From an uncultured Gemmatimonadales bacterium (GTDB lineage: Bacteria > Gemmatimonadota > Gemmatimonadetes > Gemmatimonadales > Gemmatimonadaceae): a DNA stretch of 64,000 nucleotides. The notes beneath the pieces are model-generated. The model had not been told where the DNA came from, made no database searches, and saw only the letters and a program-made list of their open reading frames with translations. Both the position numbers and the translations under genes were made by a program. The stretch lies in NCBI GenBank assembly GCA_963793305.1, contig CAWBZV010000003.1, positions 160,001 to 224,000 on the forward strand, in the 5' to 3' direction. Below, piece by piece: positions 3,588-48,716 of this stretch. Position 1 is the first letter of the stretch; the number at the start of each line of letters is the position of its first letter.

Positions 3588-4679
3588 TTGGCGATGACGA
3601 CTCCTCCGACTCCCCCTCCCAGCGGCGCCCCGGAGGCGAAGGGCGGTATCCGCACGTTGGTTACGCGTGGCGTGATCATCGTGTTGGTCATTATAGGACT
3701 CATTTGGGGCGTCAAGAAATTCCTCTACGCCCAGACGCACGAGACCACCGACGACGCACAACTCGCGGGGCACGTCGTCCCGGTCATCCCCAAGGTTGCG
3801 GGCTACGTCCAGCGCGTGCTCGTGGCCGACAATCAGCCGATCAACGTCGGCGATACCCTGGTCGTGCTCGACCCGCGCGACTATACGGTGGCCTTGGACC
3901 AGGCGCAGGCGAACCTCCGGGGCGGCAACGCATCGGGCCGGGCCGGCACCGCCGCCCAGGCGATCAAGGCCGCCCAAGCCCAGCACGCGGCGCTGACCGC
4001 TGATATCGCCGTCGCGCAAGCGAACTTCGATCGCGCCGAGCGTGACGTCGCGAGGTATCGCGATCTCGCGGCGAAGAAGATCGTCTCGGACCAGCAGCTC
4101 GACCAAGCGATCGCGGCGGACAAGGCCGCGGCCGCCCAACTCGCCGCGGCCGAAGCCCAGGCCGCGAGCGGTGGTGCCAACGTCGCGGGCGCGGGGTTCG
4201 AGGAAGCGAACGCCGACTTCCGCGTGTCGAGTCTCCAGGCCGCGGTCGCGAACGCGCGGCTGCAGCTCGCCTACACCATCCTGACGGCGCCGGTCAAAGG
4301 GTACATCTCGAAGAAGTCGGTCGAGATCGGCCAGTACGTGCAGGCGGGCCAGCAGGTCATGGCCATCGTCGAGAGCGACACCGCCTGGGTGATCGCGAAC
4401 GTGAAAGAGACGCAGCTGCGCGACATCAAGGTCGGTCAGCGCGCCGAGGTGTCCGTCGACGCGTTCCGCGGGAAGCCGCTCACCGGCACCGTCCAGTCTA
4501 TCCAGGACGCGACCGGCGCCACTTTCGCGCTGCTTCCGCCCGACAACGCGACCGGCAACTTCACGAAGATCGTGCAGCGCGTGCCGGTCAAGATCGCGCT
4601 CGACTCGACGCACTGGAACGGCCGCCCGCTGTCGCCCGGGCTTTCGGTCGAAGTCTCGATCGATACCAAGTCACACTGA
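3588..4679 (+). CDS. HlyD/EmrA-family membrane fusion (efflux adaptor) protein
   Basis: N-terminal TM, ETTDDAQ, PKVAGYV, coiled coil, FALLPPDNATGNFTKIVQRVPVKI. Confidence 0.92.
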   Translation: MAMTTPPTPPPSGAPEAKGGIRTLVTRGVIIVLVIIGLIWGVKKFLYAQTHETTDDAQLAGHVVPVIPKVAGYVQRVLVADNQPINVGDTLVVLDPRDYTVALDQAQANLRGGNASGRAGTAAQAIKAAQAQHAALTADIAVAQANFDRAERDVARYRDLAAKKIVSDQQLDQAIAADKAAAAQLAAAEAQAASGGANVAGAGFEEANADFRVSSLQAAVANARLQLAYTILTAPVKGYISKKSVEIGQYVQAGQQVMAIVESDTAWVIANVKETQLRDIKVGQRAEVSVDAFRGKPLTGTVQSIQDATGATFALLPPDNATGNFTKIVQRVPVKIALDSTHWNGRPLSPGLSVEVSIDTKSH

Positions 4680-42068: not shown

Positions 42069-43070
42069 TTAACCCCCGCCACACGACTGTCGGACCACCA
42101 GCGTCGTTGGCAATACGAGCTGTTGCCGCTCATGGCGATTCTTCTCTTGCACCGCCGCCAGCAACACGCCCATCGCGCGCGCACCGAGCTCGCTGATCTC
42201 GACATGCACTGAGGTCAGGGGCGGGCTCATGTAGCGGGCCATGGGGATGTCATCGAAGCCGGCCACGGCGATGTCACTGGGGACCGAGAGGCCGATCTCG
42301 CGAAATGCGGAGAGCGCGCCGATCGCCATGACATCGTTCGCCGCGAAGACCGCGGTCGGTCGCGGCGACAATGCCGCGATCGCGCGCGCGGCCCGGTAGC
42401 CGCCGGTCTCGGTGAAATCCCCAAGAATCTCCCAGCCCTCCTGCTGTTCGGCGCCAGCGTCGCGGAGTGCCGCTCGATATCCGCGCAACCGTTCGCGCGC
42501 ATCATAGTTGCGCGACGACCCGGTGATGATCGCCACGCGCGTGCCGCCGGTGGAGAGCAAGTGGCGCACCATCGCGTACGCGCCGCCAAAATTGTCGACG
42601 CTGATGGCATCGTACGTCGTGCCCTCGACCGCGCAGTTGAGCAGCACGACCGGGAGACTGTCGGGCAGGTTCGCGGCGAGCGTGGGGCCGTCGATGTCCG
42701 GGGACATGACAATCAGCCCATCGACCCGTCCCCGCATCGCGCGGATCGCGTCCTCGATGCGCGCTTGACTTTCGTGTGAGCTCGACACGAGCACGTGATA
42801 ACCATTGTGCTGAGCGGTCTGGTCGATGCCGCGGATGACTTCCGAGAAGAACTCGCCGTAGAGGTCCGGTAGGAGCACGCCGAGGGTGTTCGACTTGGCG
42901 GTGATGAGACTGCGCGCAGCGCTATTCGGCGAGTAGCGGAGCGCACCGGCGACTTCGCGGACGCGGGCGCGGGTTTCTTCGTGTACCGGGCCGCTGTTGT
43001 TGAACACACGAGAGACGGTCGCCACCGACACGCCCGCCGCGCGGGCAACATCACGGATTGTAGCGGGCAT
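42069..43070 (-). CDS. LacI-family transcriptional regulator
   Basis: [45 protein letters not shown]. Confidence 0.96.
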
Positions 43071-43073
43071 GGG

Positions 43074-43107
43074 TGGAAACGGTTACAGCGATAACTCTCG
43101 TTGTCAA
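43074..43107 (-). promoter_or_regulatory. LacI-type operator overlapping a sigma70 promoter of the lacI-TBDR-GH144 operon
   Basis: Perfect TTGACA on the minus strand (43107-43102); pseudo-palindrome TGTAACCGTTTCCA (43087-43074), 3 nt before the ATG. Confidence 0.7.
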
Positions 43108-43149
43108 GAGTCAATCGCGCAAGCTGAACAATATCAGTACCTTGCCAGC

Positions 43150-43650
43150 ATGACCGCTGCCAAGACCGATGACGAGAAGAGACTCGTCCTACAAGTCATC
43201 CAGCCGGGCCTGCTCGGCCTGATGGATGGGTCGGTCTCGACCCTCGCACCCATCTTCGCCGCCGCCGCACTCACCGGCCGGCCCGCGAGCGCCTTCTTCG
43301 TCGGCCTCGCCGCATCGCTCGGTGCCGGCATCTCCATGGGACTCGCCGAGGCGCTCTCCGACGACGGCACCGTCACCGGTCGCGGCAACCCATGGGCCCG
43401 CGGCGCCATCACCGGATTCGGCACCGCGATCGGCGGCATGTTCCACACGCTGCCGTTCCTCATCCCGAATCTTCAGCGCGCGCTGCAACTCGCGTACGTC
43501 GTCGTCGTACTCGAGCTACTCTCGATCGCGTGGATTCGCTACCACTTCATGAAGGGCGGCCTCGCGTCGACGATCGGTCAAGTGATCGTCGGCGGAGGCC
43601 TCGTCTTCGCCGTCGGCGTGTGGCTCGGCAAGCTCGGCGCGGCGCCGTGA
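43150..43650 (+). CDS. VIT1/CCC1-family membrane protein (resembles the C-terminal domain of MbfA)
   Basis: [47 protein letters not shown]. Confidence 0.82.
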
Positions 43651-43651
43651 C

Positions 43652-43682
43652 AACTTGAGGTCACAGTTTGTGACCTCAAGTT
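43652..43682. repeat. 31-bp palindrome, copy 1 (perfect 14-bp arms), overlapping the ORF6N stop codon
   Basis: AACTTGAGGTCACA-GTT-TGTGACCTCAAGTT. Confidence 0.95.
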
Positions 43683-44218
43683 TCAGGGTCCGAAAATCCG
43701 ACGCGCGGTCGTGAGGCTTCCTCCGGTAACCGCGTGAACTCACGCAGAGCGTCGAATACGACATGGAACTGGCCGTCGTATCGCTGCTCCAATTCATCGA
43801 TCCGCTTCGCCAACTCGGCGTGGCCCCGGAAGAACTGCCGCAGGCGTACAAATGTCCGTATGATCGCAATGTTCACATCGATCGCACGATCGCTGTGCAG
43901 GATGCTTGATAGCATGGCGACGCCCTGCTCGGTGAACGCCAGCACCGTGTAACGACGCCCGCCGTACCCGCCTTTCGAACTTGATGTCGCAAATTGTGAC
44001 CTCAAGTTGCTAACCTCTGGTGCGGTAAGCTCTAACAGGAAATCCGAGGGAAATCGACGACGGTTTCGACGGACCTGCTGGTTTAACGCCTTCGTAGGAA
44101 CGCCGTACAGCGCAGCGAGATCGGTGTCGAGCATGACCTTCACGCCACGAACAACGTAGATCCGTTGTTCGATCCAAGCGGCGTCGAGCGATGGGATGGG
44201 AAGTGTTGGGCTGGGCAT
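43676..44218 (-). CDS. ORF6N-domain DNA-binding protein
   Basis: IYVVRGVKVMLDTDLAALYGVPTKALNQQVRRN..RFP, NLRSQFATSS, GGRRY..LAFTEQGVAMLSSIL.S.RAIDVNIAIIRTFVRLR, C-terminal RVGF. Confidence 0.92.
   Translation of the reverse strand: MPSPTLPIPSLDAAWIEQRIYVVRGVKVMLDTDLAALYGVPTKALNQQVRRNRRRFPSDFLLELTAPEVSNLRSQFATSSSKGGYGGRRYTVLAFTEQGVAMLSSILHSDRAIDVNIAIIRTFVRLRQFFRGHAELAKRIDELEQRYDGQFHVVFDALREFTRLPEEASRPRVGFSDPET
43978..44008. repeat. 31-bp palindrome, copy 2, inside the ORF6N coding sequence
   Basis: AACTTGATGTCGCA-AAT-TGTGACCTCAAGTT (12/14 arm pairs); encodes NLRSQFATSS. Confidence 0.92.
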
Positions 44219-44394
44219 AGATGAGTTGGGAGGAGACGGCAGTATCCGAGAAGCCAGGATACACGGCAGGGGAGCACGCGCGTCATCGGTATGTCGACAT
44301 GCGCGGCAAGAACGAATCGAGCCGAGTCTAACACCGACCGACCCGGCCCGTAACGGTCAGAACCGAACGGGTCAGCGCACGCTATTTTTCCACT

Positions 44395-47300
44395 ATGCCC
44401 CGCCAGCCCGACGCGCTGATGCCGTTCCACCCGCTAGTCCGGCGCTGGTTCGAGGAGACCCTCGGCGAGCCGAGCCCGCCGCAGGAGAAAGGATGGCCGG
44501 CGATCGCGTCAGGCGCGCACACGCTGATCCTGGCGCCGACGGGCACGGGCAAGACACTGGCGGCGTTCTTGTGGGAGCTCAATGCCCTGATCGTGCAGGG
44601 CGCCCAGGCACCGCTGCCGAATGCCGTGCAGATCCTCTACATCTCGCCGCTCAAAGCACTCGGCAATGATGTGCAACGCAACTTGCAGAGACCGCTGGCG
44701 GAGTTGCGGGAGCGGTTCGAAGCGGCAGGCGAGCCGTTCCCCGAGATACGAGTCGATGTGCGGAGCGGCGATACGCCGGCCTCGGCGCGGGCAAGAATGC
44801 TCCGCCGGACGCCACACATCTTGATCACGACGCCAGAATCGCTGGCGATATTTGCTGACGACCGAGCGAGGCCGCACGATCTTTCCTGGCGTCCGCGCGG
44901 TCATCGTCGACGAGATCCACGCGGTCGCCGGCGGCAAACGCGGCGCGCATCTCGCGCTGACACTGGAACGCCTCGATGCGCTGGTGACCGGCGCGGGCTT
45001 TGACGCGCCACAGCGCATTGGCCTCTCCGCCACGCAACGCCCGCTGACGGAGATCGCGCACTACCTCGGCGGCCTCGATCGCGCCGCCGAATTCCGGCCA
45101 GTGACGATCGTCGACTGCGGCCTGGTCAAGCCGATGGATCTCGTCGTGCAGTCGCCCGTGCCCGACCTCGGCAACGTCGGCGGCACCGTCTGGCCCGCGG
45201 TCTACGAGCAACTGGTCGGCCTGATCCGCTCGGCCCGCACCACGCTCGTATTCGTGAACAATCGCGGTCAGGCCGAGCGCATCGCGAACAAGATCAACGC
45301 GCTCGCCAAGGAAGACATCGCCCGACCCTATCACGGATCGATTTCCAAAGAACGCCGCCTCGCACTCGAACGCGCCCTCAAAGCCGGCGAGTTGACCGCA
45401 CTCGTGACAACGAGCGCGCTCGAGCTGGGCATCGACATCGGTTCCGTCGACCTCGTCGTACAGATCCAGAGTCCAAAACGGGTCTCCGCCGCCGTCCAAC
45501 GCGCCGGCCGCGCGGGACACTCGGTCGGCGACGTCAGTCGCGCCGCATTCGTCCCCACGTTTCGCGATGATCTCATCGAGATCCTGGCGATCGTCGATGG
45601 CGCCCGCGCAGGCGAGGTCGAAGCGACGGTCGTCCCCCAAAATGCGCTCAATGTTTTGGCGCAGACGATAGTTGCCGTTGCCTCGACGCCGATCGAGGGT
45701 ACGACTGACACGGCGCTCTACGAGCTCGTACGACGCGCGTACCCATATCACCGACTGCCCCGCCAGGCGTTCGACGAAACGCTCGCGATGCTGAGCGGCA
45801 AGTATCCGGCAAACGTCGCCGTGGAGCTGGAACCACGGCTCACATGGGACCGCACCACCGGCCGCGTCACGGGCTCGCGCGGGAGTCGCATGACAGCTGT
45901 GATCTCCGGCGGCACGATCCCGGATCGCGGGTTGTACACGGTGAATCTGCCGGATCGCACCCGACTCGGTGAGCTCGACGAAGAGTTCGTCCACGAGTCT
46001 CGCATTGGCGATGTGTTCCAACTCGGCTCGGCCACCTGGCGCATCAACGCGATCGAGCACGATCGCGTGATCGTGATCCCAGCACCGGGCGCGCCAGCGC
46101 GGATGCCATTCTGGCACGGCGAGTTCGCGACGCGCGGCCCCGCGGTGAGTAGCCGCGTCGGTGCCATTCGCCGCGAATTAGCTGTCGCAACAGAGGACAC
46201 GGACGCCGAATTCGCGGCCAAGCACGGCTGCGATCTGGCCAGCGCCCGCTCGGGCCGCGAGTACGTCGCCGAGCAGCGCGTCGCACTCGGCGTCGTGCCG
46301 GATGATACGGCGCTCACGATCGAGTACTTCCGCGACGACGTTCGAATCCGTCCGCGTGGTCATCCACTCGACGTTCGGCGGTCGGGTCAACGCGCCATGG
46401 GGCATGGCCCTGGCCCGCCGCGCGCGAGATCTCCTGTCGATCGACGTCGCCGTGCAAACGAGCGACGACGGGATCATGCTCCGCCTGCCCGCGCTCGCCG
46501 CGGCTCCGCCGATACGGTCGCTCCTGGCGCAGACGCCGGCCGAGGTCGAGCGGGCTGTCCTCGACGAGGTCGGGACGACGCCGTTGTTCGGCGCCCGGTT
46601 CCGCATGAACGCCGCGCGCGCATTGCTGCTGCCGCGCGGCCGACCGAACCGCCGCATGCCGCTCTGGCTGCAGCGGCTCAAGGCCGTCGACCTGCTGCAA
46701 GCCGTGCGGCAATACCCGGAGTTTCCCATCCTCGTCGAGACGTACCGCGAGGTGCTGCGCGATGCGTTCGACATGGAGGCGCTCACCGGCGTCCTGCGCG
46801 AGATCGAGTCCGGGCGACTGCCGATTCGCATCGTCGAGACCGACCGGCCGTCTCCGTTCGCCGCCGGCCTCCAGCTCGGCTTCGTCATGGAGTGGCTGTA
46901 CGCCGATGACACGCCGCGCGCCGAGCGCGCCGCGGCAATGCTGTCCGTCGATCGCGGCATGCTCGACGATGTGCTCGGCGTCGACGACGCGCTCGACGAG
47001 GCGACCGCTGCGGCGATCGACGAAGTACTCGCCATCCGGCGCGGGACTGCTACTGGCCGCCAGGCGCGCACGGCCGACGAGCTGGCGCACCGACTGGAGC
47101 GCGCCGGGGACCTGACGCTCGACGAGCTTGCGGCTCGCGAGGCGCCAGACTCGGGCGCGCTGCGCGCGCTCCTCGCGTCTGGACGCGTCGTTGCCCTCGA
47201 CAACGGGCGCTACGTCCTGGGCGAGTATCTCCCGCAATACACCTCACGCGCCGCCCGCCGCGAAATTCTGGCGCGGTACCTCGCGCTCGCCGGACTCGTG

Positions 47301-48716
47301 ACGGTCGACGATGTAGCGACGAGGTACTCGTATTCGAGAAAGTGGATCGAGGCCCGGCTCATCGAGTGGGAACGATCGGGGATGCTGGCCTGCGTCGCGG
47401 GCCGATGGATCTCCCGCAAGGTGCTCGAACGCGCTCGCCGGCGCGCCCTGGCGAAACTCCGCGCACAGATCGAGGCGACCGATCTCCCGACGTTCGCGGC
47501 GTTCCTGCAGCGATGGCAGCATGTCGACCCGCGCGATCGCTTGGACGAAGAGGCAGGCCTCGGGATCATCATGGAGCAACTCGACGGCCTCGCGCGCCCA
47601 GCCGATGCGTGGGAGCGCGACTATCTCCCGGCGCGGATGACGCGCTACGACCCCGCGTGGCTCACGCGGGCGGCCAGTGCCGGTACGCTCGTATGGGCCG
47701 GCGTTCCCTCCACACGTGTACGGTTCTTCGAGCGGGGAGAAGGCGCCCTCTGGCAGCCTGAGTCGGCGGCGCCATCGCTCTCGGAGTCAGCCGACCGAGT
47801 GCGCGAGGCTCTTGTGCGGGGTGGTGCGTCGTGGATGACGGACATCACGGCGGTCACGGGCTTGGGCCCGGTGGCGGCGAGAGATGCGCTGCGCGAGCTC
47901 GCCCAGGCCGGCCTCGTCACCAACGACACGATCGACGCGATGCGCGAGGTGATGCACCAGCGTGCGCTCCCGTCACGCAGTCGGACCGAGCCCGACCCCA
48001 CGCGCTGGCTGCCGAACACGTTCGTGACGTCGCGCCGTCCAAGCGCACACCGCCTGCCGCGTTGGCAACGCCCGGACCGCCCGCAGTCGCAGCGTGCCAG
48101 CGCCGGGCGATGGTCGCTGCTCGACACCCCGGGCACACGAGGACCGGCGCTCGATGAGGACGCCCGAGCAGCCGTGATCGCGCAAAAGTGGCTCGTCCGC
48201 TACGGCGTCGTCACGCGCGATTGGTGGCGGCGCGAGCGCCCGCCGGTCTCGTGGCGCGCGATCTATCGCGAGCTCAAACGTCTCGAACTGCGCGGCGAGG
48301 TTCGCCGCGGCTACTTCGTCGAAGGACTCGCCGGCGCCCAGTTCGCGCTCCCGGAAGCCGTCGAGCGCCTGCGCGCCGCCCGCGAGGATCCGGACGCACC
48401 GCTCATCGCGATCGCCGCGACGGACCCGGCGTATCCAGATCTGTTGCCGCGCCCTCGCGGCGCGAGCGCGTTGCTCATCACGCAACGCGGCAAGCCGGTG
48501 ATCACGGTCGAAGGCAACGGCCGCCGCGTGACGTTCCTGGCCTCGCTCGGCGACAGCGAGTTGAGCGTCGCGGTCGCCCTCATTGCCGCGCGCCGTGGAG
48601 GACGCCGGCGCACGCTCGAGACGATCGACGGCCATCCCGCCGCCACGAGCCCGCACGCCGAGGCCTTCGTGCGCGCGGGGTTTCGTCTATCGGGGTTGAC
48701 CCTCGACTATCCCTAG
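44395..48716 (+). CDS. lhr: Lhr-family ATP-dependent helicase, long form (apparent +1 frameshifts near 44851 and 46341)
   Basis: APTGTGKT, YISPLKAL, ITTPESL, DEIH, GLSAT, ALELGIDIG, QRAGRAGH, GGTIPDRG, PFWHGE, RRGYFVEGLAGAQFA across three frames. Confidence 0.9.

Follow-up and report, generated by a model that had tools for sequence, protein, structure and literature searches.

The ORF6N gene considered here, located on the minus strand of the 64,000-nt stretch of DNA that was analysed (the window), raises a twofold question: why a segment of its coding sequence also reads as a DNA palindrome, and why a related palindrome lies over its stop codon. The gene (43676..44218, 180 aa) is set among LacI, VIT1 and Lhr genes: a convergent VIT1-family gene, outside the module, on one side (43150..43650, plus strand; Pfam VIT1, E 8.7e-9), and the divergent lhr helicase gene on the other (44395..48716, plus strand). 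Its GC3 is 0.65, compared with 0.80-0.86 for the neighbouring genes. The product passes the cut-off of Pfam PF10543 (ORF6N) with 109.6 bits against 27.8, with profile positions 2-86 of 86 aligned to residues 19-106 (E 9.5e-32). An RNA run mapped to the region covered part of VIT1 only, leaving the ORF6N gene uncovered.

Specifically, the internal palindrome (43978..44008) consists of two 14-nt arms around a 3-nt centre and encodes N71-S80 of the protein (NLRSQFATSS), a peptide that in the structure model comprises the end of a helix (66-75) followed by a loop with pLDDT below 50 (77-86). The downstream palindrome (43652..43682), also of 14-3-14 form, begins 2 nt past the VIT1 stop codon (43648-43650), contains the ORF6N TGA (43676-43678) and is spaced from the internal one by 326 bp; the arms at 43651-43682 and 43978-44009 are 91% complementary across 32 nt (29/32). 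The preliminary description of this DNA had reported these coordinates, this degree of relatedness and the filling of the VIT1-ORF6N gap by the second palindrome, and we confirm all three. It had also taken both copies to be palindromic, which holds in full for the downstream copy (14/14 pairs) and in part for the internal one, in which 12/14 pairs are matched.

By searching the window with the consensus pattern and up to 3 mismatches, these two matches were recovered, against 0.00 in 100 shuffles. As described before, the window holds no third copy, and the same applies to the whole 5.72-Mb source genome (92% complete), in which the next best match shows 6 mismatches in 26 arm positions. A tblastn search of that genome likewise returned one ORF6N gene and no second. 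REP and Rickettsia-type palindromic elements are present as many dispersed genomic copies; here, two copies are found in 5.72 Mb. An independently assembled contig, taken from a public run that is possibly the source run, spans positions 43000-45000 unbroken, with one differing letter and one gap (44851, in lhr), and since it reproduces this region the palindromes are no assembly artefact.

The internal palindrome was then compared across the ORF6N family. The starting set comprised 391 loci, drawn from viral, GTDB and metagenome sequences and from relatives; 42 were dropped for an incomplete domain, and the 349 with a full domain were reduced to 209 genes by removing redundancy above 90% identity. 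At the same place, at least 9 of 12 pairs are formed in 204/209 of these genes, compared with 13/209 for a control window, and 106 genes show 12/12; the five genes with fewer than 9 pairs were excluded from all further counts (n=204). The genes retain 11.4 of the 12 pairs on average, whereas recoding each peptide at random with synonymous codons would leave 4.7, and every one of the 204 genes exceeds its own recoding null (p <0.05). The peptides encoded by the palindrome are of 91 distinct 8-residue types, five genes read the site in another frame, and the changes within the family palindromes are compensatory and alter the protein. A nucleotide-level alignment of homologues, as had been proposed, thus reveals symmetry that is maintained by compensatory changes rather than a peptide that is preserved while symmetry decays, and the earlier suggestion that the peptide is constrained by DNA symmetry is borne out; the protein motif is a by-product of that symmetry. 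The internal copy is the general feature of the family, and the second copy is a local extra.

A palindrome of this kind could in principle act as RNA. In the family, all 100 unique 31-mers retained share a centre of 3 nt (5/143 loci were dropped for a bad ORF or the lack of a centred site), and G-U pairs are not favoured (GT/TG 18 versus AC/CA 58). A constant 3-nt centre and unfavoured G-U pairs are more in keeping with a site read by a protein than with a hairpin in mRNA, and on these grounds the latter role was rejected. A related explanation, which we consider highly improbable, holds that the palindrome is a hairpin kept symmetric by template switching and the second copy a terminator derived from a local duplication, with no protein reader. 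Template switching does perfect quasi-palindromes, the downstream copy lies between convergent genes and has folding energies of -28 and -26 kcal/mol for its two strands (z about -6), and T runs follow several of the stand-alone viral copies described below. Against this explanation, a terminator scan found no intrinsic terminator at 43000-44500, the gene neighbouring the equivalent copy in a sister species is co-oriented and not convergent, and the same arms occur in viral contigs at 60 loci with a 3-nt centre versus 4 with centres of 4-8 nt. A promoter scan returned nothing, and the best Rfam matches (E 0.75 and 1.2) are far below the cut-off.

Among the domain positions outside the palindrome, those most strongly linked to its bases are residues 47 and 44, associated with positions d4-d5, and residue 43, associated with d7, where d is counted from the palindrome centre. 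Q47 is accompanied by TCA in 237/248 half-sites, E47 by TCG in 66/68, R47 mostly by TGC (45/64) and K47 by TTC (20/22), while CG is found with R44 in 72/74 half-sites, and K43 is accompanied by G at d7 in 238/240. These three residues are placed at i, i+1 and i+4 of a predicted helix, a spacing used by helix-turn-helix proteins. Taken as a rule, residues 44 and 47 predict d4 in 199/201 genes and residue 43 predicts d7 in 175/182, after exclusion of genes in which the two arms have different bases at the position in question (3 for d4 and 22 for d7). When derived from loci L001-L160, the rule holds in the later loci (d4 108/110, d7 98/102).

Kinship does not account for this agreement. If the nearest neighbour is chosen by the remainder of the protein, it predicts d4 in 108/201 genes and d7 in 116/182, no better than a majority guess, and if it is chosen by the linked block, in 128/201 and 108/182; inheritance of helix and site as one linked block was therefore rejected, as the residues in between predict the site poorly. 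Among 90 close, disjoint pairs, a base difference is seen in 31/32 of those with a residue-class change and in 1/58 of those without, and helix and site differ between members of pairs with 88-95% identity elsewhere. The bases linked to residue 43 are not those linked to residues 44/47, and the two assort freely. In a tree test confined to well-supported branches, all the independent pairs changed in the predicted direction, and as these number only 4-6 per trait the p values range from 0.06 to 0.125, none reaching 0.05.

In the window protein, the putative recognition helix (residues 42-51, codons 44066..44095, minus strand), so assigned from the model and from the residue-base rule, carries K43 (44090-44092), A44 (44087-44089) and Q47 (44078-44080). 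For these residues the half-site GGTCACA is predicted, and with it the full site GGTCACA-N3-TGTGACC. The downstream copy, whose specificity positions are non-coding, fits in both arms, and the internal copy fits in one arm, the other differing at d4 and d8. Asymmetry of the internal site at d4 was found in 3/204 genes, among them those of the window and of a congener (G005), which indicates that the internal site does not strictly have to be perfect.

Since the helix residues predict the bases of the site and kinship does not, binding of the protein to its own gene is the best reading of these data. On the strength of this covariation, the ORF6N protein very probably contacts the palindrome physically, and we infer that it does so as a dimer. 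The preliminary proposal that the gene carries its own target is thus upheld, as a probable target, by the agreement between helix and site. Conversely, a hairpin without a protein reader cannot yield a base-specific match to residues encoded about 90 nt away. Two close relatives, L248 and L100, share the same upstream copy of the palindrome; the helix of L248 (Q47) fits this upstream copy and not the internal one, and L248 is a possible intermediate of a specificity switch.

The structure model (pLDDT 71.7) depicts a winged helix-turn-helix-type domain at about residues 16-110, a long helix at 110-146 and a C-terminal tail. Its fold matches are weak overall (Z 4-6.9, the range of common arrangements) and comprise the winged-helix folds of pSK1 Par, MerR-type proteins, Xis, Dachshund and Mbp1: Dachshund with Z 6.4 (81 aligned, rmsd 3.0), pSK1 Par, solved on DNA, with Z 5.0 (53 aligned, rmsd 2.2), and Mbp1 with Z 4.2-4.3 (83 aligned, rmsd 3.7), all sharing a helix-turn-helix with a wing. 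Foldseek returned no PDB match to the model at E 0.001, a search for solved sequence relatives gave none (best E 0.056), NCBIfam assigned no family and Pfam no KilA-N match, and no catalytic domain emerged from the Pfam, NCBIfam and PHROG searches. Three PADLOC models of PDC-S05 match the protein (best E 4.2e-52, residues 11-147), and its PHROG match is labelled anti-repressor (E 8.7e-25). In the tail, an (I/V)GF motif (residues 173-175; 43694..43702, minus strand) is conserved, variants of it (IGF, IGY, VGF, MGF or FGF) being present in 177/204 genes, with 20 unaligned there; it is reminiscent of the IGF loop that ClpX uses for docking to ClpP.

The congeners of the source genome (G000) provide a natural before-and-after pair. 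In the sister species G001 (flank identity about 92%), the orthologous protein bears R44, and the two palindromes, internal and downstream, each show the TCGCA type in both arms. The difference extends jointly to the helix, the internal site and the non-coding second site, both copies having switched together with the helix. As the deciding bases of the G001 downstream copy are non-coding, this is covariation free of peptide constraint, in one pair only. Of the G000 internal site, 19 nt are identical to the G001 downstream copy, as are the 17 nt made up of its centre and right arm; this 17-mer is absent from the other internal sites (n=204) and was seen in two other extra copies, and the shared stretch suggests an exchange between copies.

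The position before lhr is occupied by ORF6N in G000, G001 and G005 and not in G002 and G003. The G005 gene occupies the equivalent position, shares the hybrid internal site and lacks a second copy; in G003 a TonB-C gene directly precedes lhr, and in G002 other genes are found there. G001 carries TonB-C, the co-oriented neighbour mentioned above, between VIT1 and the palindrome, and in G000 this gene is missing, the junction coinciding with the edge of the second copy. The ORF6N genes of G001, G002 and G005 are broken by a deletion, stop or frameshift, some of which are possibly assembly errors, and the deletions in G001 and G005 start within about 20 nt of the internal site. As to the empty sites proposed for relatives, G002 and G003 lack the gene before lhr and offer candidates; at 72-79% identity their ends cannot be fixed, and in G003 no full palindrome is left where the gene is missing. 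As side observations, a GTCACA half-site core is present just before lhr in the empty G003 (L434, ~1030-1045) and another just before the second copy in G001 (L213, ~3945-3955), and G003 contains elsewhere two near-identical intact ORF6N genes with the same site, 14 kb apart (L215; G003:C1:3069055 and 3083021).

These comparisons bear on the idea that the palindrome is a mobility or recombination site, with the protein marking its own gene for copying to new places. Several observations point that way: the gene stands before lhr in 3/5 congeners examined and is absent in two, the housekeeping neighbours differ in most of 34 loci with no integrase or transposase family among the 61 neighbours, the G001 and G005 deletions start close to the internal site, the TonB-C loss in G000 extends just up to the second copy, and the copies may have exchanged sequence. 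Nevertheless, we regard this idea as quite improbable. Unlike the sites or inverted repeats that bound a site-specific cassette or MITE-like element, the sites do not lie at the ends of the gene, one copy being mid-gene and a downstream copy being present in 10/204 genes, so that recombination between them would remove or invert only the 3' half. In addition, the empty place of G003 is without a full site, no target duplication was seen in a three-way congener alignment, the protein has no recognisable catalytic domain, and no excision or inversion joint between the two copies was found in the contigs of four runs, small-share runs having been left out of this comparison. One joint in run X3, from 44008 to 43720, was rejected as a rearrangement, as it is a G001-type allele placed on the wrong copy. 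Half-site cores are also barely enriched at the gene flanks family-wide (4.4 and 3.4 versus 3.0-3.1 per kb), and a half-site at the insertion point was rejected on this basis; lone strong half-sites (7 near genes, 0 farther away) are too few to use. The minimal mobile cassette envisaged in the preliminary description is accordingly not sustained by the placement of the copies, by G003 or by the single-copy G005.

Apart from the internal site, extra copies occur within 1.5 kb of the 204 genes: 52 upstream (40 loci), 14 downstream (10 loci) and 10 in in-frame tandem, and a simpler scan gave 47 versus 1-2 in shuffles. Half-sites cognate to the helix make up 16/28 of those in the downstream copies, against 6.6 expected (p 0.007, for loci that are not independent), and 14/20 of those in the tandem copies, against 5.0; in the upstream copies they are at the level of chance (24/104 versus 23). 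The expected co-variation of flanking and internal copies is therefore seen in the G000/G001 pair and in the downstream copies, and not in the upstream ones. An origin as relics of sister genes holds for 9/26 of the far upstream, 3/26 of the near upstream and 4/14 of the downstream copies; such an origin was rejected for the second copy of the window. The non-cognate copies near upstream are unexplained by simple autoregulation. Arrays of 2-3 sites of differing specificity, partly with sister-gene fragments, were noted at L262 (20-375 nt past the stop codon), L256, L464 and L515, and other CA-N3-TG-centred palindromes, in adjoining ORFs without a known family, flank L009, L012, L081 and L130.

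Scans of viral contigs returned 71 unique sites, of which 20 fall within ORF6N genes, 4 lie close to such a gene and 47 have no ORF6N within 1.5 kb, the latter figure not being a count of events because several of these records are related. Reversed patterns gave no matches. The stand-alone sites resemble those of the family beyond the search pattern itself: a family-type centre is present in 45/47 (16% expected), and 70/94 positions outside the pattern follow the family. None of the 19 stand-alone records checked among the 47 contains ORF6N, eight of them being at least 90% complete. Some stand-alone sites are intergenic and others lie within UvsW helicase or primase genes, and a blastn search of the site against annotated phages returned 2 unannotated records. 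By analogy with BstA-aba, discussed below, these sites suggest phage mimicry of a self-immunity site; they may also be read by another protein with the same specificity. Sites inside phage UvsW genes, in two places and frames, were noted in L495, L518 and L533 and in L498 and L524 (~1501-1523), the assignment being based on Pfam for L495 and L498, whose peptides the other three share. L458 and L459 (299 and 363 kb; 30% GC locally) have a perfect cognate site at 1501-1523 between convergent genes, followed by a T run, and no ORF6N gene.

Related arrangements are found in other gene families. RhuM genes carry a different palindrome in a fixed register after the helix-turn-helix, with at least 8/10 pairs in 20/26 genes versus 2/26 controls, and DUF1016 genes show at least 9/10 pairs in 7/12 versus 1/12 controls, partial loci having been dropped (4/30 for RhuM and 2/14 for DUF1016). 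The DUF1016 gene of the source genome itself (L451, G000:C10:28717-29121) has only 7/10 pairs in the stretch searched. PDC-S05, to which the ORF6N protein is matched by HMM, includes RhuM-type members, which carry the equivalent palindrome. One member with a RhuM domain cut T7 and T5 plating about 1,000-fold (10.1101/2024.09.26.614923); this phage-tested member has RhuM and not ORF6N, and the accessible text of the report gives neither a mechanism nor a DNA site. The PADLOC PDC candidates are defined in 10.1101/2024.01.29.577857, the accessible main text of which does not name PDC-S05, and the available text of PMC9881135 mentions RhuM and DUF1016 only as inversion neighbours and does not contain 'palindrom'. 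ORF6N presence is patchy (17/201 family genomes, and 22/301 genomes in another set), and the neighbours are mostly housekeeping genes, restriction or nuclease genes adjoining only 4/34 loci. Patchy presence, the broken copies in G001, G002 and G005 and the 47 stand-alone sites fit a conflict gene, and the PDC-S05 match and its RhuM member, together with patchiness, fast switching and viral sites, suggest a role in defence; the prevalence of housekeeping genes next to ORF6N speaks against it.

On the whole, we consider it probable that the palindrome is the DNA site of the ORF6N protein itself and that its likeliest purpose is the self-restraint of a defence-type, potentially harmful protein. 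Two winged-helix heads would read the two arms of the double-stranded palindrome, with residues 43, 44 and 47 setting the bases 7 and 4-5 positions off the centre. The site, written into a tolerant loop of the gene, would travel with it because it lies within it, and sister proteins would not share sites because specificities switch often. Self-binding would limit expression by a roadblock, or park the protein as aba does for BstA, or both, and ORF6N would act once no longer held in this way, or against DNA that lacks the site. At this locus, the second copy would serve as the full-match site and the internal copy as a half-matched one. Roadblock or parking, as well as anti-phage action, we infer from the features listed above.

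A simpler account accepts the protein's own site and sees in it compact negative feedback of a harmless selfish or regulatory gene, with no defence or immunity. The residue-base rule needs binding only, the PHROG label is anti-repressor and the neighbours are mostly housekeeping genes; moreover, the source genome has no further site, and in 4/5 congeners searched exact sites are found only at ORF6N loci or are absent. A regulon of further sites in the source genome was rejected, none having been found genome-wide. We judge this account unlikely, as it leaves unexplained the frequent switching between close relatives, the non-cognate upstream copies and the family-type viral sites in records without the gene. 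The self-restraint reading can, on the other hand, be extended to a system of DNA passwords, which is possible though doubtful: ORF6N, RhuM and probably DUF1016 genes would each encode the password of their own protein, which would spare DNA bearing it and block or kill on replicating DNA without it. With three helix residues setting the password, variants would diversify like restriction specificities; non-cognate upstream copies would be sister passwords collected as immunity arrays, second copies such as that of the window would bridge a password change, and the 47 stand-alone viral sites, including the two separate UvsW places, would be forgeries by phages.

Cis sites inside the gene of their cognate protein are known from the lambda ori iterons in gene O and from parS within parB, which serve replication and partition. 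The ORF6N site likewise lies within its own protein's coding sequence and travels with the gene; it differs in that there is no replicon context, the sites number only one or two, and the specificities are numerous and interchangeable. Coding palindromes of which both arms encode protein are described in Nematomorpha mitochondrial genes (PMC6649704); as far as the available text goes, those are long, numerous repeats that lie in conserved parts of the proteins and lack a cognate protein, whereas here one short site occupies a variable loop and has a matched protein. The closest functional analogue is BstA, a single gene with a KilA-N-like DNA-binding domain, whose locus also holds the short DNA element aba (Owen et al. 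2021, PMC8585504). BstA variants have cognate aba elements, aba on a phage confers immunity, and the element, of 63 bp with terminal direct repeats, overlaps the start of the prophage-borne gene (PMC8585504). Both systems comprise one gene, a short DNA element in its locus and cognate variants of protein and element, which for ORF6N are known by covariation only. In contrast to aba, the elements here are 31-bp palindromes, mid-gene and over the stop, the internal one dictating a peptide, and they follow a residue-base rule; the gene stands among LacI, VIT1 and Lhr genes, and abortive infection, which aba suppresses, is, in the accessible account, a feature of BstA. The terms 'palindrom' and 'ORF6' are absent from the accessible text of that paper. 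By analogy, the ORF6N system would thus work most like BstA-aba and is set apart from it by the form and place of its element.

A literature search, with most subscription papers outside its scope, retrieved no published account of the ORF6N palindrome or of the residue-base rule. The rule provides a large uncharacterised family with a predicted target readable from each gene; it is compact and inexpensive to test, and it could serve for redirecting small DNA-binding domains to other targets. Should the defence reading be true, it would supply a mechanism for PDC-S05/RhuM-type genes, generalise BstA-aba self-immunity and point to a phage counter-defence made of DNA only.

Finally, the lhr gene next to ORF6N is interrupted in the window by a frameshift at 44851, which is missing from the contigs of runs X1 and X2; as the lhr of G001 is also intact, in one frame of 1,444 codons, this frameshift is probably an assembly error. 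A second break in lhr was observed near 46300-46900.
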